From an uncultured virus (IMG/VR IMGVR_UViG_3300042540_001015) (lineage: Duplodnaviria; Heunggongvirae; Uroviricota; Caudoviricetes), in the IMG/VR virus record IMGVR_UViG_3300042540_001015: a stretch of 64,000 nucleotides of DNA; one strand, written 5' to 3'. How positions within the stretch are numbered: the first letter of the stretch is position 1; every line of letters starts with the position of its first letter. Shown one piece after another: positions 9,201-27,064 of this stretch. A program made the position numbers and the translations under genes. A model generated the notes under the pieces. It was not told the DNA's origin. It did not search any database and worked only from the letters and a program-made list of their open reading frames with translations.

Positions 9201-9219
9201 TTCGGGCAAGATCGATTGC

Positions 9220-9696
9220 ATGGGCAGGCCACCAGTTCCTTCATCGATCAAGATTCTCCGAGGCGATCCCGGCAAGCGGGGCGTCAATCACCTGGAGCCT
9301 GTGCCGCCCCCGGCCGACATGACTCCGCCTCTCGGGCTCGAAGGTCTCGCCCTGGAGAAGTGGAACGAGATGACGGCCCTCTTCTCGGCGATGGGGGTCT
9401 TCACCCAGGCCGATCGCCACACACTCCAGCGTTACTGCTTGATGTGGGAGCAGTGGTTCGGATTCGAGAAGCACTGCCGCGAGAACGGTTCAACTCAACT
9501 CACCCAAACCGGATACAGCCAAGTCACTGCGGAGGCGACTCTCGCGAGGGCTCTCAGGAAAGAACTCCTGGAGATCGAGCGACAGTTCGGCATGACTCCG
9601 GCCGCCCGGTCCTCGATGAAAGTTTCCGGTGCCCCTGCCACCCAAAACCCTCTTGCCGCGTTTGCCCAAAGCAGAAGCGGTCAAGCAGGGGCTTAA
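9220..9696 (+). CDS. terS: terminase small subunit (P27 family)
   Basis: MGRPPVP...LRGDPGKR...FGMTPAARS signature; ATG at 9220. Confidence 0.9.
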   Translation: MGRPPVPSSIKILRGDPGKRGVNHLEPVPPPADMTPPLGLEGLALEKWNEMTALFSAMGVFTQADRHTLQRYCLMWEQWFGFEKHCRENGSTQLTQTGYSQVTAEATLARALRKELLEIERQFGMTPAARSSMKVSGAPATQNPLAAFAQSRSGQAGA

Positions 9697-11304
9697 ATAC
9701 TACTTCGACGAAGGCAAGGCGGCCCACGCCGTCCGCTTCTTCGAGGAGTTTCTGACGCACTCGAAGGGCCAGTTCGCTGGCAAGCCATTTACGCTCCTGC
9801 CCTGGCAGAAGCACGACATTATCGAAGAACTCTTCGGGTGGATGCGAGTCGAGAGCGACACGAGAAAGTATAGAGTCGGGTACATCGAGGTGCCTAAAAA
9901 AAATGGTGCCTTGGCCCCTGCGGCTGGTTGCCGTGGGGGCCAAGGCATCATCGAGGAAAATCAACCCTCCTTTCCGGCATAGGCCTCTACACGATGGTCG
10001 CCGACGGCGAAGCCTCGGCTGAGTGCTTCGGCTGTGCCACCTCACGCGAGCAGGCGGGCATCGTCTACAAGCAGATGAAGGAACTCGTCGAGTCGAGTCC
10101 CTATCTCTCCGAGATGCTGGAGATCGTGGACTCGCGGAAAACGATCGCCTACATCCCGACTCACTCTTTCTGGAAAGTCATTTCGAGCGACGCAGGCCGC
10201 CAGGAAGGCCTCAACATCCACTCGCTCTGCTACGACGAGATTCACTCGGCCAAGGATCGGAAACTCTGGGACGCGGTTCGCTATGGCGGCATCTCCAGGT
10301 CGCAGAGCCTCATTCTCGCGATCACCACGGCGGGCGTAGACCGGAACTCGATCGGCTATGAGTTGCACGAACACGCGATGAAAGTCCGGCTCGACCCGAC
10401 CTATGACGAGCAGTTCTTCGCCTATGTCGCGGCGGCCGCCCCCGAGGACGACTACCGAGACCCCGAGGTCTGGAAGGCCGCGAATCCCTCCTGGGACGTG
10501 ACGATGGACGAGGAGAGTTTCCGTGCCGACGTTCGCGACGCCGAGCAGTCGAACAGCCGCCTCTCATCGTTTCTCCGGTACAGGCTCAATGTCTGGACAC
10601 AGGGAGACGGGAACCGATTCATCAAGTTGGATCAGTGGGAGGCCTGCAAGGGCGACTCCGGGATTCTCGGCTCCGATCGCATCTGGTACGCGGGGCTCGA
10701 CCTTGCCCAGACCTGGGACTGCAATGCCTTCGTGGCGGTCAGCAAGGCGAGCGATGACGTCTTCGATGTTCTCTGCCGGTTCTGGATTCCAGGCGATAAC
10801 GCCGGAGTCCGGTCTCAGAAGGACGGAGTGCCCTACACGACGTGGGCCAAGGAAGAGCGGAACGGGCTCTGCCTGACTCCCGGGAACACTTGCGACTACG
10901 CGTTCATCAAGCGGGACATCCTCCAGTTCTGCAAGGAGCGGACAGTCCGGATGATCGCGGTCGATCCCCATAACAGCCATTACCTCGTCCAACAACTTCA
11001 GGCGGATGGTTTAAATGTGCAAGGATTTTCACAAGGGTTCGCCAACATGAACCCTGGGACCCGCCTGACCGAGACGATTATTGCGCAGGGTCGCCTGCGA
11101 ACGAACAACAATCCCATCCTGAACTGGATGGCCGGAAACGCCACGACCAAAGAGAACGCCGAGGGCTACTGCAAAATTGTGAAGCCGAGCCCAACCAGCC
11201 CTCTGCGTGTCGACGGGATCGTGGCACTGGTCATGGCGATCGCCGTGGCGAGTGACGCCGAGAACGCCAAGCCAGCACCCGAGCCGGAGATTCTCATCCT
11301 ATGA
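9629..11304 (+). CDS. terL: terminase large subunit, interrupted by a 50-nt hairpin insert in the Walker A motif (two frames: 9629-9907 and 9958-11304)
   Basis: LLPWQ, VPKKNG|KST, YDEIH, ITTAG, GLDLA, RVDGIVA motifs; removing 50 nt restores VPKKNGKSTLLS. Confidence 0.9.
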
Positions 11305-14300
11305 GCGAGGAGCGAGTCCTGTCCGACTTTGTCTGGACACCGGAGCGGGGCGAGAACGACCCCGAGGTCCGGAGCATCTCCTGGAACAATCTCCTCCTTT
11401 CCGACGAGGTCTACAGCGGAAAGTTCCTTACCGCCGCCGAGATCAGAATCAATCCGGACACGGCCCTCCAGTCGACTACGTTTCTCGCGTGCTGCCGGAT
11501 TATCAGCGAAACTGTTTCTTCGCTCCCAATCCATGTCTATCGCCGACTGAAGAACGGACACGAGGAGATCGCGAGCGAGATTCCCCTCTACCACGTTCTG
11601 ACGTTCGCTCCCAATTCCTGGCAGACCAAGTTCGAGTTCTTCGAGCAGATGGTCATGGCACTGACGTGCTGGGGTAATTCCTATACCGAGGTCAACTCGG
11701 GCAAGTATGGAGCCGTCACTGAACTCAACAACTTGCATCCAAGCCGGATGCGAGTCGAGCGTCTGGAGAACGGGCGGCTCAAGTATTCATACAACGACCC
11801 CCAGACTGGTCGGCTGCTTCAGTACACACAAGACCAGATCATGCACGTCCGCTGGACGCCCGAGCCGGACGGCGTGAAGGGCATGGTCCCGGTCGAGGTG
11901 AGCCGCGACGCGATCGCGCTCTCCCGCGCCTGCGAAATCTACGCGAGCAAGTTCTGGGCGAACATGGGCAGGCCGGGAATTGTTTTGCAGACGGACGGTG
12001 CCCTCTCTGCCGAGACTGCGGAACGACTCCGCGACAATTGGGAGAGAATTCATAGGGGCGTCCAAAATGCTTATAAAACGGCAGTCCTCACGAATGGACT
12101 GAAAGTCGAATCATTCGGTGCGACGAATAATGATTCGCAATTTTTGGAGGTCAGGCGATTTCAGATCGAGGAAATCTGTCGAGTGTTCCGGTTGCCTCTG
12201 CATTTAGTGCAGGGGCAAGGCGGCGGCAGCCTGGAGATTCAAGGCCAGGAGTTCATCAACTACACGTTGATGCCCTGGCTGACTCGCATCGAGCAGTCGA
12301 TCAGCCGGTCGCTCATCTACGACGATGCGGTCTACTACGCGAAGTTCGACACTCGCGGCCTGCTTCGCGGAGACTCGAACAGCCGGGCAGCGTTCTATTC
12401 CACGATGCTGAACCTCGGAATTTTTTCGATCAACGAGTGCCGCAAGGCCGAAGGCCTGGGCCCGCTCGGCCCCGAGGCGGACAAGCATCTCGTGGCGATG
12501 AACCTCCAGCCTCTCGAAGAGGCTGTGAAGCCAAAGCCCGACCCCTCGATGATGCCAGGGTTCGGCTCGGGTGCTCCGCCGCAAGCCCCGGGCGGCCCGC
12601 CGAGTCTCTCGGAGGTGAAGACCGGCAAGCCTCCGATCGCGTCTCCGAAGGGAGAGGATTCGGCGAAGCGGTCGCTCAACCCACAAGACGCGGAACTCGA
12701 AGAGGCTCACGTCGAGATCGCCGAAGAAGAGGGCAAGTGGTCGAAGGAGTCGGCCCACTACATCGAGAAGAATCCGTTCGCCGCTCGTGGCATCAAGTGC
12801 CACAACTGCACACACTACGTCGAGGAGGGCGGGTGCAAGATCGTCTCCGGCCTGATCGGCGGCGAGGCGATCTGCAAACTGTGGGTGATCCCGCAGGAGA
12901 AGATCACTCAGGAGCCGGAGAGCCGGGCCTTCTGCCCGACCGGCCCAGGCGGCGGCGTGAAGAACGACTGCGGCAGCAAGGACGACGGCGGGCCTGCGGC
13001 TGAGTCTGGCGGCAAGAAGACAAACAAGGGCAACTTCCCTATTGCCAATTCCCTGCCAAAGGAAGTCCCAGCGGGGCACGAATCGCTTTCCGAGTACGTT
13101 GCCTTTAAGCCCGTTCCTGAAGGATCAGGCAACTCCGCCTTTGCTGTTCCGCCCTCTGACGAAGACCTTGCCCAAGCCTTGATTGGATCGAACAAGTCGA
13201 AGGGCACGAAGATCGGCAAGGCGAAGGAACTTCCTGAAGGAACCACGGTCGCTCTCAGAATTGACATTCCTGCCTTCAATCACTCGACGGACCGCATGGG
13301 CAAGAGCGTCTACGCGATCACGGTTCACGAGGATAAGGGCGGCAAGTCCAAAGACTTTGGGTCTCCGATCGGATACGAGCCGATGGCGAGGCTTTCGGGC
13401 CCCGTGAGGTTTGACTCAAAAGAGACCGAGGCGGTTCGCGTCGCCACCGGAGAGACAACGAAAACTCCGCTGGCGACCGTGAAGGGCAAGTACACGCAGG
13501 ACAGGACGATTCCTGCCGACATCGATACTTGGACTCCGGTTGGCTTCGACCCAAAGAAAGCCGCCTACTTCTACGACAAGAAAACCGGCGACGAGATTCT
13601 TTCCGGCACCGATGCCGTTAGCGTTGGCAACACAGTATTCACTCGCAACCCGCAGCGAGGGCCCAGAAACGCCAAGACCCACTACCGCTCTCTCGAAGAG
13701 ATGATGGCGGTTGATTCGTGGGGCCTGGAGTCGCGAGGCTTCTGCCCGACCGGCGAGGGCGGCGGCATCGACAACTCGTGCGGAGACGACGAGGGCGGCG
13801 GCGACTCGCCAGCCGCCCCCAAGGGCGATGGCGACTGCCCCAAGCCGTGCGGAGAAGTTGACGTTCACGCAGACAAGAACGACGACGGCGTGACTGACAC
13901 CGCGAGAGTCGGTGTTCCGGCGTTCGATGTTCCCCCGCCTCCCGGCATCCCGCGAATGCCTAACCTCGACGAGAAGTCTCGCGCCGCCGAAGAGGCGTTC
14001 GTCAAGCACTTCGAGAACGACCCCGAGGGCGTCTCTTCTCAGTTCCGCGATCTCGTGATGAAGCAGGGCGATCCGCCGACCTTCGGCACGGACGACGCCA
14101 AGTGCCTCACGGACGTGTGGTCAGAGTCGGACCCGGAGAAGCGAGCCGAGAACCGCGCGACCTTGAACACCGCCCTGCACCAGTGCGCAAACGCGGTCGC
14201 GAAGCGTGCATTCGTGCAGCACCTCGACACGCTCGAAAAGGGTGACTCGATCATGGTGACTGTCGGCGGCTGCGGTGCCGGGAAGGGCTTCGCTCTCAAG

Positions 14301-14789
14301 AACAACCCCGACGCCCTAGAGTTGAAGGGTCAAGCAAAGGCGATTTGGGATTCGGCCGGTGACCAGAACGCCACCGAGAATCCTTGGATTCAGGCCGAGG
14401 CCGAGAAGCGAGGCCTGAGCGTGACATACGTCTTCGTTCACGCCGATCCGAAGGTGCAGTGGGCCGACCCGAATCGCGGAGTCGTGAAGCGAGCAAGCGA
14501 CCCCAAGGACGGGAGAATGGTCGACGCGAAGGTCTTTGCCGACAGTTACGCGATCGGAGCAAAGAACCACCACGCGTTTCACCAAGCGAACAAAGACAAC
14601 TCCAACGCGAGGTTCGTGTTCCTCGACAACACCGGGAAGCCCAAGTCGATCCCTGGGGTTCCGAAGGAAGCACTCGATCTCAATCCGAGCGAACTCGCTT
14701 CGTTCGCCGAGAAGGAGGTTGAGAAGGCCCAGGCCCCGGAGCGGGTGAAGAAGGGTGCCCTTGCAGGGAGGCGAATCTGGAAGAAATGA
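11301..14789 (+). CDS. HK97-family portal protein with long C-terminal extension (HiPIP-like Cys domain, unknown domain, Zeta-toxin-like P-loop domain)
   Basis: N-terminal ~410 aa is portal (CCRIISETVSSLP, GNSY, EICRVFRLP, SINECR); extension has CHNC..C..C..W, two FCPTG tags and VGGCGAGKG. Confidence 0.9.
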   Translation: MSEERVLSDFVWTPERGENDPEVRSISWNNLLLSDEVYSGKFLTAAEIRINPDTALQSTTFLACCRIISETVSSLPIHVYRRLKNGHEEIASEIPLYHVLTFAPNSWQTKFEFFEQMVMALTCWGNSYTEVNSGKYGAVTELNNLHPSRMRVERLENGRLKYSYNDPQTGRLLQYTQDQIMHVRWTPEPDGVKGMVPVEVSRDAIALSRACEIYASKFWANMGRPGIVLQTDGALSAETAERLRDNWERIHRGVQNAYKTAVLTNGLKVESFGATNNDSQFLEVRRFQIEEICRVFRLPLHLVQGQGGGSLEIQGQEFINYTLMPWLTRIEQSISRSLIYDDAVYYAKFDTRGLLRGDSNSRAAFYSTMLNLGIFSINECRKAEGLGPLGPEADKHLVAMNLQPLEEAVKPKPDPSMMPGFGSGAPPQAPGGPPSLSEVKTGKPPIASPKGEDSAKRSLNPQDAELEEAHVEIAEEEGKWSKESAHYIEKNPFAARGIKCHNCTHYVEEGGCKIVSGLIGGEAICKLWVIPQEKITQEPESRAFCPTGPGGGVKNDCGSKDDGGPAAESGGKKTNKGNFPIANSLPKEVPAGHESLSEYVAFKPVPEGSGNSAFAVPPSDEDLAQALIGSNKSKGTKIGKAKELPEGTTVALRIDIPAFNHSTDRMGKSVYAITVHEDKGGKSKDFGSPIGYEPMARLSGPVRFDSKETEAVRVATGETTKTPLATVKGKYTQDRTIPADIDTWTPVGFDPKKAAYFYDKKTGDEILSGTDAVSVGNTVFTRNPQRGPRNAKTHYRSLEEMMAVDSWGLESRGFCPTGEGGGIDNSCGDDEGGGDSPAAPKGDGDCPKPCGEVDVHADKNDDGVTDTARVGVPAFDVPPPPGIPRMPNLDEKSRAAEEAFVKHFENDPEGVSSQFRDLVMKQGDPPTFGTDDAKCLTDVWSESDPEKRAENRATLNTALHQCANAVAKRAFVQHLDTLEKGDSIMVTVGGCGAGKGFALKNNPDALELKGQAKAIWDSAGDQNATENPWIQAEAEKRGLSVTYVFVHADPKVQWADPNRGVVKRASDPKDGRMVDAKVFADSYAIGAKNHHAFHQANKDNSNARFVFLDNTGKPKSIPGVPKEALDLNPSELASFAEKEVEKAQAPERVKKGALAGRRIWKK

Positions 14790-17700
14790 GTGCAGCGGAA
14801 AAAGCAACGCAACTGATCGAAGAGATCAAGGCTGCGGTCGGCATCTCGGAGTCCGACGATCTTGCCAAGTGGTGGGACGAAGACGCCGACCGTCTGAACA
14901 AGATGGCCGAAGAGGCCAAGAAGATCGCGGTGAAGGTCGAGAGCCGCGCCTTCTGCCCCACTGGCGAGGGCAACGGAATCGACAACTCATGCGGCTCCGG
15001 CGACAGGGGGCCGAAGATGGCCCCGGACAAAGACTCGGGCGGAGGGAGGGGCGGCGACGGCGACAACTTTGACGCCGTAGCCAACGAAATCTTGCGGTCC
15101 ATCGAGGCGACCGGCGGATACTCAGTCCATCCGATCACGGCCGAAAGCCCAACGACCGGATACATGGTCTCCACTGTCTCCCAGGCTGAGGAAAAGATTG
15201 CCGGTCTGGAGAACGTCACCGGAGACAGGATTCGCGAATACTTCGACAAGCACAAGGACTATCTTTCCGAGAACCCGCAGTTACACTTAGGGGGCTGGTT
15301 CAACCTCGAAGACGGGCTCGTCTATCTTGACCTGTCCGAGAGGTTTGAGGACGTCGACGACGCGATCGACAAGGCTGTCGAGAAGAACCAACTCGCAATC
15401 TGGGACCTGAACACCAAGTCAGAAATTCGCAAAGAGGATTACGATGGCAGAAGGACAAGAAAAAAAGAACCTCGTTCGGTTCGACTTCCCGCCCGGAGCG
15501 GGCCCGGACGAGATCGCGGCGGCGATCCGAAAGGCCGGATACAGGCTCCTGGCGGAGAAGGCGGCGAGGGAGGGGAAGCCCGCGCCTTCTGCGCCACCGG
15601 AGAAGGCGGCGGAGTAGACAACTCGTGCAGCGCGGGCGAATCATCGTCCGGCTCTGAGTGGGTTGCCTCCTCGACCGCCACGGCCACCGAGGAGCAAGAG
15701 CCCCAGTACACGGAGGCCGCCACCCCTCCATCGCGATCGGGCTGGAAGCGTTCCGAGGGGATGACGACCTGGAGTCGCGAGGAACTTCAGTCCTCGAAGA
15801 GCCCGTCGGAGACTGCCAAGAGTCTCGGCAGCCTCACGATCGTCGGAGGCAAGTGGGCGAGCGAGGCTCTCTCGAATGTTGGCGTCTCTCTCGACGACGT
15901 CATCGAGGCGTGCAGTTTCCCGGACGAGTCATCGAACGTCGTGATCGTGCCGGGCGAGCCCGCCCAGGCCTTCGACGTAATGTCTGGAAAAGATAACAAG
16001 GTCGGCTTCCTCGACGAGATCACGGTGACGACCGTGTCGACTCTCGAAGGATCAGACTCGCAGAACCACGCGATGACCTCGCTGCGGCGGCACGAGGACG
16101 GCACGCTCGAAATGAAACTCATCGGGCTCCTCGTTGCCGATGACGTGAAGCAGAACAATCGGATCGCTGCCGCCAGGAGAATTCTCGACCAAGTCCCGAG
16201 AATGATCGCCAACGCCGAGAGGCTGGGCGTCGACAAGGTTTCTCTCCGGGCGGCCGGTGACTCGGAGAACGAGAAGTATCAGGGCTACAAGATTTGGCCT
16301 CGCATCGGGTTTGACGGGGCGATCCCCAGGAAGTTGGTGACGAGCAAGTACACGCTGATGAAGGGCGTGTTCAACTCTTACGGCGACCGCATCCCTGACT
16401 CGATCCTCTCCCCTCGCGCCAAGCAGGAGAAGGCCAGCGGCAAGTTGACGGTCCAGGCTCTCTACGAGACGAAAGAGGGCCAGCGGTGGTGGGAGAGAAA
16501 CGGCGGCGATATGCCCATGTCTCTCGACATCAAGGACAAAGAGAGTCCTGGCATGAAGGCCTTCGAGAAGTCGCGGGCCAGGATCGGCAACCGGAGCCTG
16601 TCGGAGTTCCTCCTCTCCGAAAGTCGCAGCCTGAATCTTTTCTGGCCTGCGTGGCTGGAGAGGCGTGCGTACTGCCCAACCGGCGAAGGGAATGGAATAG
16701 ACAACTCATGCAGTAGCAGCGAAGGCGGCGCAGCGTCGTCCGCAATCGCCAGTGCTGTTCAGTCCCCCGAGAAGTCCTCGTCGCCAGCGGGGCCGCTCAA
16801 GTGGACATCCGGCGACCCGACAGGCGACATCACTTCTCGCGTGATGGCGGCCCCGCCGACCGTGAGGAGTGCTGACGGGAGGACGATCGAATCTACCTCT
16901 ATCCCGGACGCTCATATCTATCCGTTCGCCGGGCGTCAGTGGGTCTCGACGATCGACGCTGGCGCGTACCTGTCATCGATGCAAGACCAAGTTCGCGGCG
17001 GCGTAATTAACACCGCGACGGGCCGGGGGGAACTGTCACGCGAGAGCCTCGACTACATCACGACGGCAATCGCTGACCAGGGAATCACTGCGGCCAATCG
17101 CGGAATCGTTCCGCTCTTCTACTCGCCCGAAGAACTTGACCGGCAGTTGCAGGAGTTCTCGTCGCTCATTCCGCAGGTTCGCGGCGGACGAATGAAAGAC
17201 GGAACGCTCATCGAACAGGAGGACGCGGAGCACCTGTTCAGGGTTGTGCAGGCCCTCACGAGCCCCAACGCAACACCGTTTGCGAATATGCAGCGGACGG
17301 ACTCGCTCTTGCGAAAGTTCTTTGAGGGAGACGGAAGGATCACGACAGGAGATTCCCTCGGCGTCACCGGCCCAGGCATTCGCAAGTCGCTTCAGCGATT
17401 CCAGGCGATCGTCGACACGCTCGGAAGGCGAACTGGCGGGAGAGTCGACACGGCGGCCGGGCTGGCTGCGGCTCGTCAAATGCTCCAGCACCAGATGCTC
17501 CCGGCGAAAGAAATTGACAAATTCTTTGCCGACTTCAAGTCCGATAAGGACTCGAAGGACGCGTGGAAGCCCGGGAATTATCTCGTGGGTGAGGTCGTCC
17601 CGGTGTTCTCTACGTTTGGCCCCAAGGTCGGGCCGTTCTACGAGAACAACCAGGGCAACCTCGACCCGCTAACGGCTGATGTGTGGTTTACGAGAACCTG

Positions 17701-20440
17701 GGGTCGCGTCACTGGTGAACTCGTTGTGCCCGGCAAGTCGAGCAAGGCCGTCGAGCACGCCGAGCGACTCATCGATGCCTTCAAGAAAGCGAGAGACGAG
17801 CACTATCACGGGATCGCTCCCGAAGAGTTGCACGACTCGATTCGCAGGACGACTCAGAACGGCGTCGTCGATGACGTGCTTCGCGCTTGGTCTGAAGACC
17901 GCCTCGCGCACTACGCGGCTGGCGACTACAAGGAGAAGACTGGCGTCGGCGGCAAACTGAACTCGATCGCTAAGAACATCGTCAACAACGACACCTCGCT
18001 GATGGGAGACCCAGGCGCGGGCTCCCGCCGAAGCAACATGATCAAGGTGATGCGAGAGGCGTCGGCCAGGACCGGGCTGCCCGTTGCATATTTGCAGGAC
18101 GTCCTGTGGCAGGACGAGCAGGACGCCTACGCCTCCCTCGGCGCGAAGACGGCGACAGGCTTTGGGCAGTTGTCTCTGTACTCCGACCAGATCAGAAGGA
18201 TCGCCCAGGATCAAAAAAACAATCGCCGTCCGATGGCATCGAAGGATCGCTCCTCGCGACGGGCCTACAAGGAGGCCCAAGAGGACTCGTATCGCGACTA
18301 CGAACGCGGCGGCCGAGAGCAGATGCTCTGGGACGTTGCCCTCGCGAAGGTCAGCGACCAAGAATTCGCTAATGCCGTCATCGCCTTGGCCGAAGGAGGC
18401 AAAGAATCTCGCGGCTTCTGCGCCACAGGCGAAGGCGGAGGCATTGACAACTCGTGCGGCAGCGACGGCAAGGCCGCCGACGGCGACGAAAAGCAGTCAG
18501 GCAGCGAGTGGGCCGCCTCATCGGCGGGCGAGCCGACGTCCTCCACCGTCAAAATTGGAGACAAGCAGGAAGAAATCGACTCTCGCCTGGGCAAGATGGG
18601 CGTCAACATGGGCGAGGTCATGGCGATGGCGGGCGCAGGAGCCGACGGCGTCTACACATTCATCCGTCGCGACCAGGAAAAGCCCAACGAGAACGGGATT
18701 CACATCGAAACCACTCGCGATTTGGCCGGTGTGAGGGACGGAATGTTCACCACGACGGTGATTCGGAACGCCGGAACGGAGTCCGATCCCGAAATTGTCA
18801 TCGATCACAAGTTGATGGACGTCTCTCCGGCCGTCGCGTCCGACCCAGAGAAGCGGCACGAAGCGGCGAGGGTGTTTTTTCGCACGATGACCGACAATGT
18901 CGAGGCCGCACTCAAGTCTGGAGCGTCGAAAATTGTCCTGAACGCCGCCGGGAACGCTCGCGGCGAGGGCTCGAAGCGTCGAGAGATCGACGGAAACTCG
19001 TTCCGAGGCTACACGATCTGGCCGCGAATGGGTTTTGACGCTCCGATTCCGTTCAATCTCAAAAATAAGTTGCCGGAAGGCCTCGATCACTGCCGCACGT
19101 TGCTCGATTTGCACGCAACGCCCGCCGGAACACGCTGGTGGAGGGACAACGGCACCGACATCGACGTCCAACTCGACCTGAGTCGAGCCGATAGCCCCCA
19201 AATGCAGGTCTTCGGGCGTTTCGCGAGGCACTTCGAGCGAGACAGGCGAGAACTTGCCTACGGAACCGGCGATGGATGGCTCTCTCCGGCCGATCAGGCG
19301 AAACTCGACGAGTTGTGGGAAGGGATTTGGGACGAAGGGCTCCTCGACGACTACTCTGGCGAGGAAGAATCGCGAGCATTTTGTCCGACCGGCGATGGCG
19401 GCGGCATCGACAACTCGTGCAGCGCGAGCGATTCGTCGTCCGGCTCAGAATGGGCGGCCGCTTCGACGTCTCCGCCGAAGGAAGGCACCGCAGACTGGGG
19501 CCAGACGAGCGGAACTGAAATCTGGACCCCTGCGAAGCCTCTGTTCAAGGGCTCTGATCGGGTTGCGAGCATCAGGATCAATCGCGCCGCAGAGGTTCGC
19601 GAGATCGCAGAGGAGTTTGGGCTCGGCATCTCCGAGGTGACTGACGCCTCCGGCCCCGTAAGCGAGTCAACCGAGCGTGCTCACATCACTCTCCCGAGAG
19701 TCGAGGTTGGGCCGACCGGGAACGGCATACAGATTTCCTGGACTTGTCGCGGCGCAACGACCGGCGATGGTTACGCTCCGCACGAGAAGCCGTTCGCCGA
19801 GCCGAAAGATACGGTCGTGAACGCGGTCAGCGCGTATCGCGTGATCGAGAGAAGCCCGACCAGCGGTCTCACGCTGACTCTCGGGTCGTTCGACATCCAT
19901 CCCGACTTCCAGGGCAAGGGCATTGCCCTGGAGATGACCGGACGCGTCGTGTCTGCCCCGGTCGACGCGATCATAATGACAGCCGCGAGGCAGGATGACC
20001 CCAATCCACGGATGCGGATGACCGGATACGCGGAGTGGGCCAAGCACGGGTACAACGCCCACATCAACAGCGTGAAGGCAGTCCTTCAGGCCAAGGGCGT
20101 CGACCTGCCTGACGAGTTCGGCCACTGCCGCTCCCTCCTCGACCTCTACGCGACCCCCGGCGGGCCGGAGTTCTGGAGAGAGCACGGCGACACGATCACG
20201 CTGCGGTTCGACAAGCGTCCACGCAGCCAGAGTTACAACGCGTTGTTTGCAACACAGGACCGCGTTCGCAGGAAGAATCGTATGGAAGAGCCCTGGACGA
20301 GGCCCGCGACTGGCTCGGACTGCGACTACGATCCCGAAATCGACGCCGCGTGGGCGGAGATTCAAAGCAACGGAGGCCTCGACGGCCTGCCCCCAGAGGA
20401 GCCCGAAGATGGCGACCCCCGAGAAGTACAGCCACATTAA
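14786..20440 (+). CDS. 1884-aa multi-module head cargo polyprotein (5 tagged modules: unknown, GNAT-like x3, glycosylase-like)
   Basis: five [FY]C[PA]TG..GxDNSC tags; three paralogous GY..W.[RK].G[FY] domains; FGPKVGPFY...TADVWF domain. Confidence 0.75.
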   Translation: MSAAEKATQLIEEIKAAVGISESDDLAKWWDEDADRLNKMAEEAKKIAVKVESRAFCPTGEGNGIDNSCGSGDRGPKMAPDKDSGGGRGGDGDNFDAVANEILRSIEATGGYSVHPITAESPTTGYMVSTVSQAEEKIAGLENVTGDRIREYFDKHKDYLSENPQLHLGGWFNLEDGLVYLDLSERFEDVDDAIDKAVEKNQLAIWDLNTKSEIRKEDYDGRRTRKKEPRSVRLPARSGPGRDRGGDPKGRIQAPGGEGGEGGEARAFCATGEGGGVDNSCSAGESSSGSEWVASSTATATEEQEPQYTEAATPPSRSGWKRSEGMTTWSREELQSSKSPSETAKSLGSLTIVGGKWASEALSNVGVSLDDVIEACSFPDESSNVVIVPGEPAQAFDVMSGKDNKVGFLDEITVTTVSTLEGSDSQNHAMTSLRRHEDGTLEMKLIGLLVADDVKQNNRIAAARRILDQVPRMIANAERLGVDKVSLRAAGDSENEKYQGYKIWPRIGFDGAIPRKLVTSKYTLMKGVFNSYGDRIPDSILSPRAKQEKASGKLTVQALYETKEGQRWWERNGGDMPMSLDIKDKESPGMKAFEKSRARIGNRSLSEFLLSESRSLNLFWPAWLERRAYCPTGEGNGIDNSCSSSEGGAASSAIASAVQSPEKSSSPAGPLKWTSGDPTGDITSRVMAAPPTVRSADGRTIESTSIPDAHIYPFAGRQWVSTIDAGAYLSSMQDQVRGGVINTATGRGELSRESLDYITTAIADQGITAANRGIVPLFYSPEELDRQLQEFSSLIPQVRGGRMKDGTLIEQEDAEHLFRVVQALTSPNATPFANMQRTDSLLRKFFEGDGRITTGDSLGVTGPGIRKSLQRFQAIVDTLGRRTGGRVDTAAGLAAARQMLQHQMLPAKEIDKFFADFKSDKDSKDAWKPGNYLVGEVVPVFSTFGPKVGPFYENNQGNLDPLTADVWFTRTWGRVTGELVVPGKSSKAVEHAERLIDAFKKARDEHYHGIAPEELHDSIRRTTQNGVVDDVLRAWSEDRLAHYAAGDYKEKTGVGGKLNSIAKNIVNNDTSLMGDPGAGSRRSNMIKVMREASARTGLPVAYLQDVLWQDEQDAYASLGAKTATGFGQLSLYSDQIRRIAQDQKNNRRPMASKDRSSRRAYKEAQEDSYRDYERGGREQMLWDVALAKVSDQEFANAVIALAEGGKESRGFCATGEGGGIDNSCGSDGKAADGDEKQSGSEWAASSAGEPTSSTVKIGDKQEEIDSRLGKMGVNMGEVMAMAGAGADGVYTFIRRDQEKPNENGIHIETTRDLAGVRDGMFTTTVIRNAGTESDPEIVIDHKLMDVSPAVASDPEKRHEAARVFFRTMTDNVEAALKSGASKIVLNAAGNARGEGSKRREIDGNSFRGYTIWPRMGFDAPIPFNLKNKLPEGLDHCRTLLDLHATPAGTRWWRDNGTDIDVQLDLSRADSPQMQVFGRFARHFERDRRELAYGTGDGWLSPADQAKLDELWEGIWDEGLLDDYSGEEESRAFCPTGDGGGIDNSCSASDSSSGSEWAAASTSPPKEGTADWGQTSGTEIWTPAKPLFKGSDRVASIRINRAAEVREIAEEFGLGISEVTDASGPVSESTERAHITLPRVEVGPTGNGIQISWTCRGATTGDGYAPHEKPFAEPKDTVVNAVSAYRVIERSPTSGLTLTLGSFDIHPDFQGKGIALEMTGRVVSAPVDAIIMTAARQDDPNPRMRMTGYAEWAKHGYNAHINSVKAVLQAKGVDLPDEFGHCRSLLDLYATPGGPEFWREHGDTITLRFDKRPRSQSYNALFATQDRVRRKNRMEEPWTRPATGSDCDYDPEIDAAWAEIQSNGGLDGLPPEEPEDGDPREVQPH

Positions 20441-22721
20441 GTTCGTCCCTCCGTCCGGCGTCCGCCGCGAGGCAGAGTACGGACTCAAACTCCGTCGCGA
20501 GCACGGCCGAGGCGGCACCGCCGTCGGCATCGCGCGTGCGAGAGACCTGTCGAACGGCACCGAGTTGTCGCCGTCGACCGTGCGTCGCATGAAGGCGTAC
20601 TTCGATCGCCACACCGTCGACCAGAAGGGCGAAGGATTCAACCGAGGCGATAAGGGCTGGCCCTCGAACGGCTACATCGCCGCGAAGTTGTGGGGCGGAT
20701 TCCAGAGCGGCTACTCGTGGGCAAAGAAGGTCGTCGAGCAGATGAACGCGGCCGACGAGAAGTCTCGTTCTTATAGTCCGGAAACGGAAACCCGTAGTCT
20801 CGAAGTCAAGGAGACTGGGATGCAAAACGTCGAGCGACGGTATTTGGCAGCGTCTGGTTCTGAGAATTCCACCGAGGGCGCACTCGGCGTCGAGCACCGC
20901 GCCGACCCGCAGACGGGCGAGAAGCGGACATACCTTATCGGGTATGCGGCCAAATTTAATACTGACAGTTTGCTGTTGGGGGATTTCGTGGAGAGGATCG
21001 CCCCGTCGGCATTCGAGATCGTCGAGAATGGCGAGGACCTCGAAGGGAAGCCCCTGGAGACTCGTGGCCTCTTCAACCACGATCCGAATCACCTCATCGG
21101 TCGCTTCCCCAACACGATGAAGTTGACCGTCGACAAGATCGGTCTCAAGTACGAGATCATGCTCCCCGAGAGCCGCAAAGATTTGGCCGAGAGCGTGGCT
21201 CGCGGTGACTTGAAGGGCAGTTCATTTTCGTTCGTCGTGGCCGAAGGCGGCGAGAAGTGGACCCGCGAAGGAGGCAAGAGCCGCCGCCTCGTGACGAAGA
21301 TCAAGTCGCTCCTCGACTGCGGGCCCGTGACCTATCCGGCCTACAGGGATAGCAGCGTTGCCGTCGCGAAGCGAAGTTACGAGCAGTTCGCTGCCAAGCC
21401 TCAGGCCCCAAAGGTCGATCTCTCCGCAGAGATGCGGAAGTGCCAGGAGTTCATCGGCGAGCGTCGCGGCTTCTGTCCGACGGGCCCGGGGGGCGGGATC
21501 GACAATTCTTGCGGCGGGAAGTCGGGGGCAAGCAAAAAGCCAGCCGACGACGTCGGCGCGGACATTCACGCTGATTCCTTGCCAGCCATCGCAGGCGCAG
21601 CCGCAGGAGCGGCGGTCGGCGCGATCGCCGGAGCGCCAGGGGCTGTCGTCGGGGGCTTCGCGGGCCTCGTCGCCGGAGCCGTCAGCGTTGACCGCTACGT
21701 CGCGAAGGTCGAGAAAGCGCTCAAGAGTGTCGGCTCTTCCATTAAGAAAATCGACACCTTTGCAAGAACGATCGGCAAGGCGATGAGCATCACCTCCACG
21801 AAAACAGGGGGAGTCCAGGCCGAAGGCGGCGGCGTGAAGATGACCATCGAAAAGTATGCGAAGGACGAGGTCGGCAAGTCTCTCGCAGGAAAGGTTGCCT
21901 TCATTGAGAACGCCACCAACGCGATTGGCGGCGAGGGAACCGAGAGCGTCGGCCGTCTGGCGGGCACGCTCGTCAAGGCCGGTCGCGACCTCGGCGTCGA
22001 TCACGTCATGGTTGCCCTCGACACGATGGATAGGCTTCACGAGGAGGCGTTCGTTGAAGCCGGTTTCACACATAGCATCACAGGCGACGACGCGACTCGC
22101 ATCACGATGATCAAGTCGTACAAGCGTTCGTCGAAGCGGTACGACGAACTTATGGCTTTCTACTCCGAGCGTCGCGGCTTCTGTCCGACAGGCCCAGGCG
22201 GCGGCGTCGACAACACCTGCGGCGGCGGCAAGGAGGGCGGATTTGGGTCTGGCAACGACGTCGGCAAGAATAAGCCCGAGCCGGATAAGCCAAGCGGCGG
22301 CACCGTGAAGTCAGAGAAGCCTCCGGGCGAGCCGAAGTACATGGAGTGGAAGAAGGGGAAGGATCACAAGAGCAAGTCCAAGACCGACAAGGCCCAGGGC
22401 TTCCTCGACAAGGCCCGCGAAGAGCAACTCTCAAAGGGCGGCAAGGACAAGGGCAAGGCCGACGAAGGCGGCGGCGTGCAGACCTGGAGCAAGGGCGATC
22501 ACTTCCCTTGGACGACGAAGCAGGTCGGCGACAAGGACGGCTATCTTCAAGGCGTTCACCCGGACGGCTCGAAGACGGAGCAGTATCCGTTCAAGGACGG
22601 CAACACGTCCGAGGCCGAGAAGATGCTCGGGGAGGAACTGAAGCGTCGGCCGGGGAAGCGTGCATACGACCCCCGCCAAGTCGTCGAAGACACGCTGAGG
22701 TTCCTGAAGGACCGTCGCTGA
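20409..22721 (+). CDS. HK97-type prohead protease with N-terminal extra domain and two C-terminal tagged modules
   Basis: GYAAKFN, FVERIAPSAF, LFNHD, SSFSF, GPVTYPAY motifs; ATG at 20409. Confidence 0.9.
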   Translation: MATPEKYSHIKFVPPSGVRREAEYGLKLRREHGRGGTAVGIARARDLSNGTELSPSTVRRMKAYFDRHTVDQKGEGFNRGDKGWPSNGYIAAKLWGGFQSGYSWAKKVVEQMNAADEKSRSYSPETETRSLEVKETGMQNVERRYLAASGSENSTEGALGVEHRADPQTGEKRTYLIGYAAKFNTDSLLLGDFVERIAPSAFEIVENGEDLEGKPLETRGLFNHDPNHLIGRFPNTMKLTVDKIGLKYEIMLPESRKDLAESVARGDLKGSSFSFVVAEGGEKWTREGGKSRRLVTKIKSLLDCGPVTYPAYRDSSVAVAKRSYEQFAAKPQAPKVDLSAEMRKCQEFIGERRGFCPTGPGGGIDNSCGGKSGASKKPADDVGADIHADSLPAIAGAAAGAAVGAIAGAPGAVVGGFAGLVAGAVSVDRYVAKVEKALKSVGSSIKKIDTFARTIGKAMSITSTKTGGVQAEGGGVKMTIEKYAKDEVGKSLAGKVAFIENATNAIGGEGTESVGRLAGTLVKAGRDLGVDHVMVALDTMDRLHEEAFVEAGFTHSITGDDATRITMIKSYKRSSKRYDELMAFYSERRGFCPTGPGGGVDNTCGGGKEGGFGSGNDVGKNKPEPDKPSGGTVKSEKPPGEPKYMEWKKGKDHKSKSKTDKAQGFLDKAREEQLSKGGKDKGKADEGGGVQTWSKGDHFPWTTKQVGDKDGYLQGVHPDGSKTEQYPFKDGNTSEAEKMLGEELKRRPGKRAYDPRQVVEDTLRFLKDRR

Positions 22722-25132
22722 TGAGCCTAAACGCTCGCATCGCGAGTCTCGTCGCGTTCTCGCAGTCGAGGGCGATGGGCACCGCCACGAACGCAGGCGG
22801 GGGTGCCCTCACGGGCACGAGCGACTGCGGGCGAGATGAGGATGGGAAGTTTGGTGCTGGCAACACCTGCGGCATCGGCATCAACATCAACGACAAGCAT
22901 CAGGACTTTACCGGATTAATCCTGGCCGGGCAGAAGACTTCCGAGACGAGAATAACTCACTCACTCAAGCCATACGTCGGCAAGACTGTCGGGATCGTCC
23001 GCACCGGAAAGGGCAAGGCGACGCTTGTCGGCACGATGAAGATCGGCGAGCCAAAGTTCTACAAGACGAGCAAGGACTTCGACGCCGACTTTGATAAGCA
23101 TCAAGTCGGTAAAGATTCGCCCCACTACATCGGCCCTGAGGGAAAGTACGGATACCCTCTCTCAGAGGTGAAGCCCGTCAAGCCGGTCGTGCTCAAGTCG
23201 AAGGGCATCATTGGGCGAGTCATTCACAAGTCGAAGCGAGACATGACGATCGTGTACGACCTCGCTGGCGAGGAGTCTCCGGAAGAGCCGAGAGCCTTTC
23301 TTCTCTCCGGGGGAGACGCCCGCTACGCCAGCCTCCTGGCATTCGCCGAGGCTCGCGACTGCGGGCGGGACCCCGACGGGAAGTTCTCGTCTGGCAACAC
23401 CTGCGCGGGCGGAGCCATTGCCGAGGCTGCGAAGGGTGCCGCCGCCGGGGCGGTGAAGGGTGCGATCACCGGCCTCCTCGCGGGCGGGCCCGCGACCGTG
23501 AAGCCCGGGGCCGCGATCGGTGCCGCCACCGGCGCAGTGAAGGGCATCTACGACAACCAGATGCGGCCAACGAGAGTGAAGAGGACGATTGAGAAGTTGG
23601 GCATGACGAGTGATCAGGTCGGCTCTCTCGTCGAGCGGCTCGGCGGCACGCCTAACTCCTCCGCAGACACGAAGGGCAACTCGCTGCGGATCACGATCCG
23701 AGACAAGGAAGGCAAGAAGTCTTTTCACGTCGAGATCGACAAGAAGAACATTACTGTCTACCCGCGAAGAGCATCCGGGGAACTGAGCAGCAAAGAAATA
23801 GACCGCGTCAAAAAGATCGCCGACGAGTCGACCCCGAAGTCGGTTGCCGTCGTCGTGAAGAAGAGTTCGTCGGCCTACGTCGCCAAACTCGTGAAGAGCG
23901 GCTTCACGTTGGCCGCAGGTCATGCCGCCGACATTCTCCTGGCGACCTACGCGACGCCTCTCGTCCACTCGGCCGTGGTCGATGCTGCCCAGTCCGTGAA
24001 GAAGCGAGTCTCTTCTCGCGGCTTCTGCCCCACGGGTGAGGGCGGGGGCATCGACAACTCGTGCAGCAGCCAGGACGGCGATTTTGCAGCCGCATCGGCC
24101 GGTGCCACGAAGACGTACTCAAAGGCCGCCGAGATCGAGGGGCCGAAGACGTTTGACTCGCAAGAGATTGCAAAGGAGATTGCCTGCGATCGGTTTGACG
24201 AAACAGGCGAACTTCAGCGATGGGCGAAGGGCTCTCGCGCAAGGCAGGCAGACGTCTCCGCCCATGTGGCTTCCGTTCGACTGGCTTCTCAGGCCGTTCC
24301 GGAGATTGGCGAGGCGAAAATCAACTTCATATCCCGGGCAGACGCCACAAGGGCGGGGATGCTTCGGGGGGTTTCGCCAAAGGAGGCCGAAGGCATCTTG
24401 GGCCTCACGAATACGGGCACGGGCGAGATCAGGATGATCATTGACAACCCGCCGACCCCGAAACTTATGCGGAAGGCTTTCGAGGATCAGGTTCTCTCGA
24501 CCGACCATCCGTCTCACGGAATTGTCCATGAGTTCGCTCATCACCTTCAGGTGGACGGCTACAGGCAATTCCTGATTGAAGACATCAAGTCGGTGATTGC
24601 TGACGGCAATCACAGCCAGAGCCAAAAGACTCACATGGAGAACTTGGTCAATCACCTTGAGGGCGGAGGAGAGATTCCGCCAGAAGCAGTCAAGGACGGG
24701 GAACGAAAACTGATGGAGAAGTTCGCCGAGTTTGCTCTCGCCGACAGGGACGTCCGGCCGTGGGCGATCGAGTTGCACAGGCAGATGGCCGACAAAGGCA
24801 ATCAAGATTCCAAGAAGCGGCTCGCCGACCTGGAGCGAGGCCACGATCTCGATTTGAATGAACTCAAGGCATACGAAATTGCCTCGAATTTCTGGTCTCA
24901 GGGCCTGAAGCCGCAGCCCGGAGTGGTGATGCCGCCGCCGCTCCCGGACTCGTTCGTGGCCCGGGTTCGCGGTGTTTCCAAATACGCGACCACCCAGCCG
25001 ATAGAATTAACGGCAGAGTATTGGACAGCCGTGGCCCTCGGATACCGCAAGCGAGACCCGTACCTGGATGAGATGTGCCTCGCATCGCACATGCCCGTTC
25101 CCAAAGAGCGAAAGGGGAAGGCGAAGAAATGA
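22721..25132 (+). CDS. head cargo polyprotein: ASCH-like domain, Gly/Ala-rich module, HEXXH metallopeptidase
   Basis: ATG overlaps the upstream TGA; LILAGQKTSETR (ASCH-like); IVHEFAHH...SKYATTQPIELTAE. Confidence 0.75.
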   Translation: MSLNARIASLVAFSQSRAMGTATNAGGGALTGTSDCGRDEDGKFGAGNTCGIGININDKHQDFTGLILAGQKTSETRITHSLKPYVGKTVGIVRTGKGKATLVGTMKIGEPKFYKTSKDFDADFDKHQVGKDSPHYIGPEGKYGYPLSEVKPVKPVVLKSKGIIGRVIHKSKRDMTIVYDLAGEESPEEPRAFLLSGGDARYASLLAFAEARDCGRDPDGKFSSGNTCAGGAIAEAAKGAAAGAVKGAITGLLAGGPATVKPGAAIGAATGAVKGIYDNQMRPTRVKRTIEKLGMTSDQVGSLVERLGGTPNSSADTKGNSLRITIRDKEGKKSFHVEIDKKNITVYPRRASGELSSKEIDRVKKIADESTPKSVAVVVKKSSSAYVAKLVKSGFTLAAGHAADILLATYATPLVHSAVVDAAQSVKKRVSSRGFCPTGEGGGIDNSCSSQDGDFAAASAGATKTYSKAAEIEGPKTFDSQEIAKEIACDRFDETGELQRWAKGSRARQADVSAHVASVRLASQAVPEIGEAKINFISRADATRAGMLRGVSPKEAEGILGLTNTGTGEIRMIIDNPPTPKLMRKAFEDQVLSTDHPSHGIVHEFAHHLQVDGYRQFLIEDIKSVIADGNHSQSQKTHMENLVNHLEGGGEIPPEAVKDGERKLMEKFAEFALADRDVRPWAIELHRQMADKGNQDSKKRLADLERGHDLDLNELKAYEIASNFWSQGLKPQPGVVMPPPLPDSFVARVRGVSKYATTQPIELTAEYWTAVALGYRKRDPYLDEMCLASHMPVPKERKGKAKK

Positions 25133-25275
25133 TCATCTTGCAGCAGCCCGGAGAAACTCCGGAGCAGTACGCAGAGCGAGTGAAGAAAATCCAGGAGGCT
25201 GTCTACGGAAAGCAGCCGAGCCTAGTTGAACTCTTGCAGAAAAAGGCCAAGGATGGCGACCGTCCGAAGCGGTGA
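25129..25275 (+). CDS. small hypothetical protein
   Basis: ATGA overlap with the upstream stop; MIILQQPGETPEQYAERV. Confidence 0.55.
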   Translation: MIILQQPGETPEQYAERVKKIQEAVYGKQPSLVELLQKKAKDGDRPKR

Positions 25276-25447
25276 TAAGTGTTCCAATTCCGGTTGCTGT
25301 GGTCTCATGGCAACTCGGAGTAGCCGACAGAGCGGCGAGTTCCAGATTCGATACCTCCGCTGCCAAGTCTGTGGCAATTGCGCGAGGTCGGTCGTGACTG
25401 CAAGCGACGTCCGGTCGATTTGCTGGCGACGCGCCAATCAAAAATAG
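25253..25447 (+). CDS. Ogr/Delta-like zinc-finger protein (candidate late-gene activator)
   Basis: C...C....TRSS......RYLRCQVCG pattern. Confidence 0.55.
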   Translation: MATVRSGDKCSNSGCCGLMATRSSRQSGEFQIRYLRCQVCGNCARSVVTASDVRSICWRRANQK

Positions 25448-25553
25448 TGTTGTGCCGCACAACACTTTCTTTCTCCCTGCTTCTTGGGGTGCCTGAGCGA
25501 TTGAATCTAGTGTGAACGTGTAGCCCCACTACCCGCACATAGGAATCAATCGC

Positions 25554-27014
25554 ATGGAAGCCTCCGCCAAGATCAAGCAACTCCTCGACGAACTCGCGGC
25601 CGTCCTCGCTGAGATGGGCGCGCTCCAGGAGAAGGGCGAGGTCGAGGACACCGAGGCTGGCGAAGAGTCGGTCGAGGAGAAAGGCAAGACGGAAGGCCAC
25701 GAGGACGCCGAGTACACGGAAGAGGAAGACGAAGAGCAGACCGAGAAGAAGATTCGCTGCCTCTGCGAGCGTGCCGAGAAGATTCGCGACAAGATCAAGT
25801 TTTACGAGGGCGTGGCGGTCAAGGAACTGGAACTCCGCACCGTTCTCGACAAGGCGACCCCCGCTTCGGTGGCCGCTGTCTCCCCCACTCAGGCCAAGGA
25901 GGGCCGATCCGTGACCCAGATTTATCACAACCTTCCCGGTGCCGGTCGTCTTCGCGGCTTCAAGGGCCCCAACGCCGAAGAGCGTGCCTACCGTGCGGGG
26001 ATGTTCTATAAGGCTCAACTGTTCGGCGACAAGGACGCAGCCCGCTGGTGTGCCGATCACGGCGTGATCGACAGCCGTGCGATGGGCGAAGGCGTGAACA
26101 GCCTCGGCGGCGTGTTTGTCAATGAGGAGATTCTCAACGAGGTGATTGTCCTCGTCGAAGAGTACGGCGTGTTCGCCAAGAACGCCCGCAACGTCAACAT
26201 GAACTCGGACACGCTCATTGTGCCGCGTCGAGTTGGCGGCCTGTCGGCTTACTTCATCGGCGAGAACACGGCGATTCCGGATTCGGACGCCTCGTGGGAT
26301 CGCGTGCAACTCGTAGCCAAAAAGGTCGCGGTCTCCAACAGGATTTCTTCGGAATTGCTGGAGGACTCCGTACTCTCGTTGGGAGATTATTTGACCACTG
26401 AGACAGCAAGAGCCCTTTCGATCTTGACAGATCGCGTCGGCTTCGTCGGGACCGGCAGCGGTGACGACGGCGGTATCATCGGTGTCTCCACGAAGATCGC
26501 CGACGGTGCCCACAACGGCAGCCTCGTGACGGCCGCGACCGGCAACACTGCCGCGACCACCCTCACGATCGACGACTTCGTGAACACGGTGGCGCGGCTT
26601 CCGGTTTACGCGCGTGCCCGTGCAGCATGGTATGTGAGTCCGGCCGTGTTCGCCGCCAGCGTGCAGCGTCTCGGCCTGACCAACAACGGCAAGTTGACCG
26701 GCGGCAACTCCGCCGCGAACCTCGCCGAGGCTCCGGAAATGCGACTGCTCGGATATCCAGTGAATTTCGTTCACACCCTTCCGAGCGGCCTCGGTGCCGA
26801 CCCCGGCAAGGTGCAGTTCCTGCTCGGCGACCTCAGCCTCAGCACGATGTACGGCACCCGTCGCGGCCTCCAGGTCAAGACCAGCGTGGACCGCTACGCG
26901 GAACTCGACCAGACCCTGATCGTCGCTTCGATGCGTATGGATTGCGTCACCCACGACGTGGGCGACGCGACCAAGGCGGGCCCGGTTGTCGGTCTCCGCA
27001 CGGCTCTCTCTTGA
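25554..27014 (+). CDS. major capsid protein, HK97 fold with N-terminal delta (scaffold) domain
   Basis: acidic coiled-coil N-terminus, SR|AMGEG...GGVFV, ISSELLEDS, LLGYPV, LLGDL. Confidence 0.93.
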   Translation: MEASAKIKQLLDELAAVLAEMGALQEKGEVEDTEAGEESVEEKGKTEGHEDAEYTEEEDEEQTEKKIRCLCERAEKIRDKIKFYEGVAVKELELRTVLDKATPASVAAVSPTQAKEGRSVTQIYHNLPGAGRLRGFKGPNAEERAYRAGMFYKAQLFGDKDAARWCADHGVIDSRAMGEGVNSLGGVFVNEEILNEVIVLVEEYGVFAKNARNVNMNSDTLIVPRRVGGLSAYFIGENTAIPDSDASWDRVQLVAKKVAVSNRISSELLEDSVLSLGDYLTTETARALSILTDRVGFVGTGSGDDGGIIGVSTKIADGAHNGSLVTAATGNTAATTLTIDDFVNTVARLPVYARARAAWYVSPAVFAASVQRLGLTNNGKLTGGNSAANLAEAPEMRLLGYPVNFVHTLPSGLGADPGKVQFLLGDLSLSTMYGTRRGLQVKTSVDRYAELDQTLIVASMRMDCVTHDVGDATKAGPVVGLRTALS

Positions 27015-27064
27015 TGTACGGACACGGTAACCACTAACAAAACCCTCCCTGGAGCAGTTCTCAA

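Follow-up and report, generated by a model that had tools for sequence, protein, structure and literature searches.

A Cysteine-Loop Peptide behind Predicted Prohead-Protease Sites in Shuffled Head-Gene Polyproteins of Uncultured Tailed Phages

Polyvalent proteins of phages are large multidomain proteins, encoded among the head genes and fused to portal, MuF or prohead peptidase domains; their packaging and injection are predictions (PMC5512222, PMC9503650; here and below, statements on published work refer to the part of each paper that was available). We analysed a window of 64,000 nucleotides (nt), IMG/VR record IMGVR_UViG_3300042540_001015 from an uncultured Caudoviricetes virus, in which four head-gene proteins carry ten copies of a 15-residue Cys-x11-Cys loop, called the tag below, beginning right behind an Arg (P1). 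The window's system and the polyvalent proteins have in common the ART-PolyVal, InPase, GNAT, 2H and HExxH peptidase domains and a mosaic architecture (PMC5512222, PMC9503650). Unrelated domains stand in one chain (an HhH-glycosylase fold, GNAT-like modules and an uncharacterised domain in a protein of 1884 amino acids, aa), the genes are linked or fused to head and packaging genes, and shared domains recur in variable architectures. No match was found between the window's own proteins and LPD Pfam models, nor between its head proteins and MuF (PF04233). The main text of PMC5512222 proposes autoprocessing by a metallopeptidase and contains neither the word 'linker' nor 'cysteine'; the available text of the two polyvalent-protein papers mentions no junction tag and no covariation of P1 with the protease, whereas the window's system has both (PMC5512222, PMC9503650).

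Other likenesses concern processing. In T4, gp21 cleaves at L/I-x-E, and the capsid targeting sequence is an N-terminal propeptide (PMC9026906). As in T4, cargo would here be processed by the prohead protease at the motif of the capsid protein, and phages whose P1 is Glu share L/I-x-E itself; the T4 signal, however, is removed and occurs once per protein (PMC9026906), whereas the tag stands behind the predicted cut, can recur in one chain as often as ten times, and is found with proteases of several families. It lies C-terminal to P1 and is mostly internal, unlike a removed N-terminal propeptide. HK97, whose capsid protein is cleaved at K103/S104, has the same portal, protease and capsid families, with a basic P1 and a small P1' (PMC10275583). 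It differs in having no cargo polyproteins, and P1 is Arg (E-x-R) in the clade of the window and Lys in a sister clade; Arg was read from sequence at the capsid boundary of 20/20 related capsid proteins. In SPN3US and phiKZ, many head proteins including the portal are cut at A-x-E by one protease, with redundant propeptide sites; there propeptides are removed from single proteins of giant phages, and the available text reports no conserved prime-side tag (PMC10052503). Neither the tag motif nor a closer concept was found in the literature covered, which held few subscription papers; the FTP supplements of PMC5512222, unexamined, could list the motif. To judge from the sequences, the polyvalent-protein architecture and the T4- or SPN3US-like processing proposed here are of known kinds, and the tag at the junction and the covariation of P1 appear to be new.

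The tag and its head-gene surroundings

The window has a GC content of 61% and is of tailed-phage type, with genes for a terminase, an HK97-type portal, an S78 prohead protease and an HK97-fold capsid protein at 8947-27014. The ten copies of the tag with its P1 follow the consensus R↓[AG][FY]C[PA]TGxG[GN]G[IV][DK]N[STD]C (↓, predicted cut) and all lie in the portal-to-capsid block; coordinates and consensus both match those of a preliminary description of this DNA.

12918 and 13728, plus strand: motif copies in the portal open reading frame (ORF; 11301-14789)
14939, 15575, 16658, 18404 and 19367, plus strand: motif copies in the 1884-aa ORF (14786-20440)
21459 and 22167, plus strand: motif copies in the protease ORF (likely start 20409)
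24011, plus strand: motif copy in ORF 22721-25132

Reading all six frames of the entire window gave no strict copy outside these ten, and residue shuffles of the four proteins contained a mean of 0.001 copies (maximum 1 in 2000). Degenerate codons of the tag were identical in 159/354 comparisons, where codon usage alone would give about 120. By this measure the copies are old and kept mainly as peptide, with a mild synonymous excess, in agreement with the peptide-level conservation previously claimed. The linker described after each copy was recovered as well, the 12 residues after the tags being Gly/Ser-rich (G 27%, S 16%). A second tag, DCGRDxDGKFxxGNTC, is present in two copies, at 22823 and 23357, so that the window holds 12 tagged modules. 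Three of the window's proteins have a Cys content of 0.26-0.28 per 100 residues outside the tags, and the Cys pair of the tag is invariant; across loci the value is 0.45 downstream of tags versus 1.27 in other ORFs. The residues C, T, G, G, G and C of the tag were invariant in 68/68 sites taken across P1 classes.

The region 9500-27100 was covered in 30/30 bins in 4/4 other lake metagenome runs. All 24 runs listed for it are lake or freshwater metagenomes, and no RNA dataset is among the listed runs holding it. Contig joints at the region were left unused, most of them having arisen where a short stretch matched the tag of a related phage; the portal of the window is listed on contigs of up to 89,381 bases.

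Scans with degenerate patterns returned at least 163 and 119 tag stretches in viral contigs and at least 173 in metagenomes; in GTDB genomes there were 4, on 3 contigs of metagenome-assembled genomes only. At least 429 loci collapsed to at least 205 contig groups with at least 419 distinct tag sites. With a profile built from 68 sites, 1519 of 1.84 billion cluster representatives (50% identity) were matched at E<=0.001. No model in Pfam, NCBIfam, PHROGs or PDB lies over the tag, whose profile had 0 PDB matches at E<=10; the preliminary description was right in not recognising the motif. Confinement to head-gene loci with variable modules downstream, which it had named as support, was seen in the groups from the pattern scans: head genes were present in 69/69 groups of at least 8 kb, and the nearest head gene was no more than 3 kb away for 140/145 tagged ORFs and no more than 6.5 kb away for all 145 (the evaluable ORFs left of 167 when 22 in short unflanked loci were dropped). 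Inside tagged ORFs, 44/45 portal hits had no tag upstream, the exception being a mis-clustered cargo module; the same held for 28/29 protease hits, and MuF was never found less than 182 residues from a tag. The tag thus marks head cargo, and not portal, protease or MuF cores. In one XkdF-type phage (locus L029) it heads small stand-alone ORFs (7224-7778 and 12426-13058), one of them among head-tail connector genes, with leaders of about ten residues.

The residue before the tag and the prohead protease

Over the 419 sites, P1 was N in 182 cases, R in 164, K in 30, E in 13, Y in 11, L in 9, F in 7, H in 2 and G in 1. Two sites of the same group had the same P1 in 799/821 pairs, versus an expected fraction of 0.35, and 62/67 multi-site groups were monomorphic. 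In the same 821 pairs, P2 was constant in 149, P1' in 463 and the variable x of the tag in 352, so that the constancy of P1 does not stem from recent duplication; P3 was alike in 534 pairs and is mostly Glu in the Arg class. In 122 further proteins P1 agreed in 422/438 pairs (expected fraction 0.67).

P1 is associated with the type of head. Arg goes with PF04860 portal, PF04586 protease and PF05065 capsid; Lys with a divergent S78 clade or with XkdF (PF14550); Asn with PF06381 portal, DUF6260 capsid and a protease-like domain matching phrog_760 and weakly phrog_530, presumably of a DUF2213-like kind, a label that Pfam did not return. Phe and Tyr go with a Mu-type portal and a phrog_976/PF10123 protease, and Glu with a PF25209 capsid and a phrog_29592/15531 domain, the E-type sites reading L/I-x-E. 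Among the groups with a protease in their fetched DNA (70, the other 135 of 205 having none there), the protease family predicted the majority P1 in 70/70. Groups new to the seeds, which were only of the R and N types, gave 16/16 matches; for the four small P1 classes the seeds came from the same groups that were tested. The best of 10,000 permutations of the P1-protease match reached 45/70, a comparison that overstates independence, the 70 groups representing about six protease lineages. In all, 232/235 sites fitted the class of their protease.

P1 was moreover the residue at the propeptide boundary in 39/39 capsid proteins with a matched extension (R 20/20, N 14/14, K 3/3, Y 2/2), the boundaries having been located by sequence patterns of our own choice and not by mass spectrometry; two XkdF-type capsids have no such extension. 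In the window itself, the SR↓A reported at the delta-domain boundary is present as IDSR↓AMGEG at R175 (nt 26076). The PF04586 protease adjoins the PF04860 portal and the PF05065 capsid, which completes an HK97-type S78 maturation set. Since P1 follows the protease family and equals the capsid-boundary residue, cleavage of the junction can very likely be ascribed to the protease that the phage itself encodes, and this comparison strongly supports the cleavage at R↓ by the prohead protease that had been proposed for the window.

The tag itself is a portable, protease-independent element, which occurs in phages of six or seven other protease types, each time behind the P1 of the phage in question. 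Copies of one P-loop module, 61-91% identical, follow R↓, K↓ or N↓ and the same tag, and in one phage the module stands behind N↓ and a different tag.

The Leu class was not counted in the 70 groups. The protease of this type of phage had no phrog_976 match. A candidate protease-scaffold of a Leu-type phage of 60.5 kb (L434:11839-12861, record G002), read by eye, has several L↓A/S sites and no family match. In the 268,804-base contig behind loci L306 and L315, probably a concatemer, the same locus recurs.

Tagged modules, their exchange and the neighbouring genes

The tagged proteins of the window and the structural genes next to them are the following.

9629..11304, plus strand: terminase large subunit (family match), with a 50-nt insert within
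11301..14789, plus strand: HK97-type portal (aa 60-385; PF04860 E 3e-96, TIGR01537) with a C-terminal extension holding a small four-Cys domain and two tagged modules
12927..13736, plus strand: tag 1 (12927-12971) and an uncharacterised module, weakly L5 gp82-like (PF25735 E 0.066; relative E 5e-4)
13737..14786, plus strand: tag 2 (13737-13781) and a P-loop NTPase/kinase-like module (Walker A-like at 14268)
14786..20440, plus strand: 1884-aa polyvalent protein, a 54-aa acidic leader and five tagged modules
14948..15583, plus strand: tag 3 (14948-14992) and a small alpha/beta phage domain, function unassigned (predicted structure, predicted local distance difference test, pLDDT, 85)
15584..16666, plus strand: tag 4 (15584-15628) and a GNAT-like module, paralogue a (paralogy E 3e-19)
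16667..18412, plus strand: tag 5 (16667-16711) and a module of predicted HhH-GPD DNA-glycosylase fold (module 3; predicted structure, pLDDT 82)
18413..19375, plus strand: tag 6 (18413-18457) and a GNAT-like module, paralogue b (paralogy, alignment)
19376..20437, plus strand: tag 7 (19376-19420) and a GNAT-like module, paralogue c (paralogy, alignment)
20409..22721, plus strand: S78 prohead protease of the HK97 family (PF04586 E 1e-30, TIGR01543; S78 domain at 20874-21386), with an N-terminal phrog_2859-like domain and two tagged C-terminal modules
21468..22175, plus strand: tag 8 (21468-21512) and a glycine-zipper module (PF13441 E 0.004)
22176..22718, plus strand: tag 9 (22176-22220) and a charged low-complexity module (no family match)
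22721..25132, plus strand: 803-aa ORF with a 17-aa leader and three tagged modules
in ORF 22721..25132, plus strand: second-type tag (22823-22870) and a weak ASCH-like module
in ORF 22721..25132, plus strand: second-type tag (23357-23404) and a glycine-zipper module
in ORF 22721..25132, plus strand: tag 10 (24020-24064) and a HExxH zincin-like module, HExxH at 24527 (read from sequence)
25554..27014, plus strand: HK97-fold major capsid protein, untagged (PF05065 from aa 185), whose delta-like domain ends at R175 (26076)

The model of module 3 had its top match in an 8-oxoG glycosylase, with Z 10.9 (root-mean-square deviation 3.7, 193 aligned residues), a value under the comparison tool's caution level for helical proteins; the top 20 rows were all HhH-type glycosylases or queuine-salvage hydrolases. 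We conclude that the predicted structure has the fold of the HhH-GPD glycosylase superfamily, and an invariant Asp in L-T-x-D-x-W suggests a putative active site. In BFVD, module 3 matches LPD/ART-PolyVal polyvalent proteins, and in the ESM Atlas hypothetical clusters only, 14-33% of whose members carry DUF7178; with Foldseek it had no match in PDB. The tag 3 module had 22 BFVD matches at E<=0.001 and no fold in PDB (best Z 3.6), and the idea that it is SAM-lyase-like found no support (Z only 2.6). For the P-loop module, the profile matched zeta toxin weakly (E 0.014). The GNAT assignment of the three paralogous modules is weak, resting on 2/19 members. Searches of PDB sequences with the modules, that of tag 1 among them, and with the protease returned no match, and the HExxH module had no family match. 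In the protease alignment His (21078), a Ser motif (21216) and Asp (21315) are invariant, from which we infer the catalytic residues; an R↓S immediately behind the protease domain is invariant too. In sum, about half of the 12 tagged modules are plausible enzymes. Their earlier designation as enzyme cargo holds for that half and fails for two glycine-zipper modules, one low-complexity module and two uncharacterised ones.

The 1884-aa protein had 160 homologues, with the module order shuffled. Among 442 tag sites in 120 homologues, 161 had an upstream sequence matching a junction of the window; the same module followed in 47, and in 114 it did not (36 of these had an unmatched downstream sequence, and some others were exchanges among the GNAT-like paralogues). 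Homology blocks with the DNA of relatives often ended 31-67 nt past the start of the tag. Module end and tag are often separated by a spacer, helical and acidic, which has a second Arg site and is left out in some homologues. Other peptides were also found behind P1: DCGRxxxG[KR]FxxxNxC, NCGxGxGGFQxGNxC, [FY]DPxQPRDxxG[RK][FW], NPxGxNQ[YF] and W[ST]xEARxA. The first and second tag were counted ahead of the same module 18 and 14 times for module 3, and 53 and 20 times for module 4. These alignments indicate that modules are exchanged between phages at the repeated tag, as a side effect. The cargo of relatives comprises ART-PolyVal, InPase, 2H, topoisomerase IB, GNAT, ParB and sigma70 domains, and relatives carry PF18760, PF18823 and PF04233; MuF was present in 22/34 tagged proteins (the best 34 of 150 listed), together with ART, 2H, GNAT, ParB and sigma70 cargo. 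Shared cargo domains, BFVD matches and MuF make the link to polyvalent and MuF proteins, first drawn as a conceptual one, closer than an analogy.

Some further features of these proteins were noted. At window positions 12798-12900 (portal aa 500-535) lies the untagged four-Cys domain, C-x2-C-x9-C-x12-C-x2-W, whose position shifts among relatives and which we take, from its pattern, to be HiPIP-like; a comparable pattern occurs in the Mu-type proteases of loci L027 and L052. The phrog_2859-like domain (20409-20800) is conserved, and in most Arg-type relatives it forms the N-terminal part of a fusion with the protease.

Elsewhere in the window, the terminase is encoded by ORFs 9629-9982 and 9928-11304, with a strong 50-nt hairpin at 9907-9956 (about -40 kcal/mol) that splits Walker A between a Gly and a Lys codon and ends in a second Gly codon. 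Similar inserts of 46-51 nt were found in at least 4 related loci, in differing frames and with in-frame stops in two; they are absent in six. The insert resembles programmed translational bypassing, as in T4 gene 60 and a Streptomyces phage terminase in the accounts available, or a tiny intron. Between the capsid and head-tail connector genes, a glycosyltransferase-2-like ORF (27565-28338), conserved in 13 groups, may possibly serve virion glycosylation. The segment 46336-52909 encodes a dATP/dGTP diphosphohydrolase, a histone-deacetylase-family protein, a MazG-like protein, a nucleoside deoxyribosyltransferase and a TROVE/Ro60 protein, with an integrase-like ORF on the minus strand (46861-47841); these genes suggest DNA modification and possible lysogeny. 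A 2400-aa tail protein with RCC1 repeats (38628-45830) and, upstream of the terminase, a 1427-aa Fn3/laminin-G protein (3512-7795) complete the list.

Cleavage, the role of the tag and its meaning

The explanation that we favour, with a little more confidence than an even balance, is that of cut cargo with a leader unmasked on each piece. The four genes would encode head-cargo polyproteins of the polyvalent kind, which would enter the prohead through the fused portal or protease, or by acidic helical leaders and linkers. Cutting of the polyproteins by the own S78 protease at E-x-R↓, the site that would also serve to remove the capsid delta domain, is highly probable. Each cut would expose the 15-residue loop as the new N-terminus of a module of 180-580 residues, with the Gly/Ser tether behind it, and the Cys pair may close the loop by a disulfide or a metal. 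Because the tag would be kept after the cut, is on every module and is absent from the structural cores, its role would be a post-cleavage one, exerted module by module; if cleavage is granted, the tag is about as apt to be a leader for retention in the head and/or exit through portal and tail with the DNA as to be something else. Its partner should be common to very different heads: DNA would qualify, and so would a metal, a host factor or the surface of a conserved fold. We considered and rejected the idea that the tag mimics the capsid N-arm, a similar Gly-Gly pattern occurring only in HK97-type capsids.

Several points weigh against this explanation. Packaging, cutting, ejection and Cys chemistry are steps that we infer from the motif, its placement, its covariation with P1, the shuffling and the fold of one module. 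The P1 comparisons have the limits stated with them (few protease lineages, seeds drawn from the groups tested in four small classes, groups without a protease, capsid boundaries placed by pattern); in addition, P1 was discordant in 22/821 pairs and 3 of the 235 sites deviated from their protease class. Tags were absent from the records of cultured phages, in which the matches at E 3-10 are those of chance. Most head proteins of SPN3US need not be cleaved (PMC10052503). Three tagged modules of the window are glycine-zipper or low-complexity ones. Sequence-unrelated tags can replace the Cys-loop tag, and homologous modules are often adjacent with no recognised tag between them (locus L283, for example), so that the tag would be dispensable or redundant. 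Finally, ejection, retention and docking on the protease are three roles that the present data do not separate.

Docking is the alternative that survives best, and we consider it unlikely. Here the tag would be a prime-side element recognised by the prohead protease fold, turning cargo junctions into good substrates, or would recruit cargo together with the protease, and have no role after the cut. The fixed register, Cys always being the third residue after P1, is what such an element would show, and one peptide could serve all proteases if, as described, those of tailed phages are homologous (PMC9026906). However, the same P1 stands untagged at the sites in capsid and scaffold and at those where the protease would cut itself, the second tag lies 0-4 residues from R, and unrelated tags substitute for the Cys loop.

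For the tag to load cargo into the capsid, as the T4 capsid targeting sequence does, is improbable, and the packaging signal offered as one of the original options shares this fate. The tag's confinement to head-linked cargo would suit loading, and so would the short leaders of some proteins, in which only 8-10 residues precede the first tag. Against this, cleavage takes away the T4 signal, which is a propeptide (PMC9026906), whereas the Cys-loop tag would stay; the tag is also repeated on internal modules and found where a module is fused to portal or protease, so that its loading is assured anyway, and the capsid proteins and scaffolds of its carriers belong to different families.

Even less probable is a recombination anchor or neutral boundary, with linker duty only as a peptide. 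The homology blocks ending 31-67 nt behind the tag start, the 114/161 junctions at which a conserved upstream sequence meets a different module and the mild synonymous excess are all compatible with it; yet synonymous sites have mostly diverged, the six residues C, T, G, G, G and C hold in 68/68 sites, and the variable linker also shapes the block ends. Least probable of all, polyproteins left uncut, or cleaved in the host or by the HExxH peptidase that they contain, with the motif as an internal structural repeat, have precedents in N4 virion RNA polymerase and some polyvalent proteins delivered uncut and in the proposed metallopeptidase autoprocessing (PMC5512222), and the window does have an HExxH module, but the tracking of protease family and capsid boundary by P1 would be left unexplained.

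Returning to cut cargo with a per-module leader, we propose tentatively, as a conjecture that may well fail, that tailed phages with unrelated heads share a small set of interchangeable N-terminal leaders, unmasked by the maturation protease, which direct proteins to be ejected together with the genome, the Cys-x11-Cys loop being one of them. The system bears on two open questions: what processing polyvalent proteins of 1000-3000 residues undergo, and what singles out a head protein for ejection. It has a grammar, present in 1519 protein clusters, of a site for the own protease, a retained tag, a flexible tether and a swappable module. From this grammar the cleavage specificity of several prohead protease families so far unstudied can be predicted; on the conjecture just given, P1 would reveal such specificities, those of an Asn-specific and an aromatic/Leu-specific family included. 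The grammar also allows the polyproteins to be divided into individual effector candidates, to be used in anti-defence screens, and the tag, if it is an ejection leader, would be a 15-residue handle with which any cargo protein might be loaded into phage particles and delivered by them.

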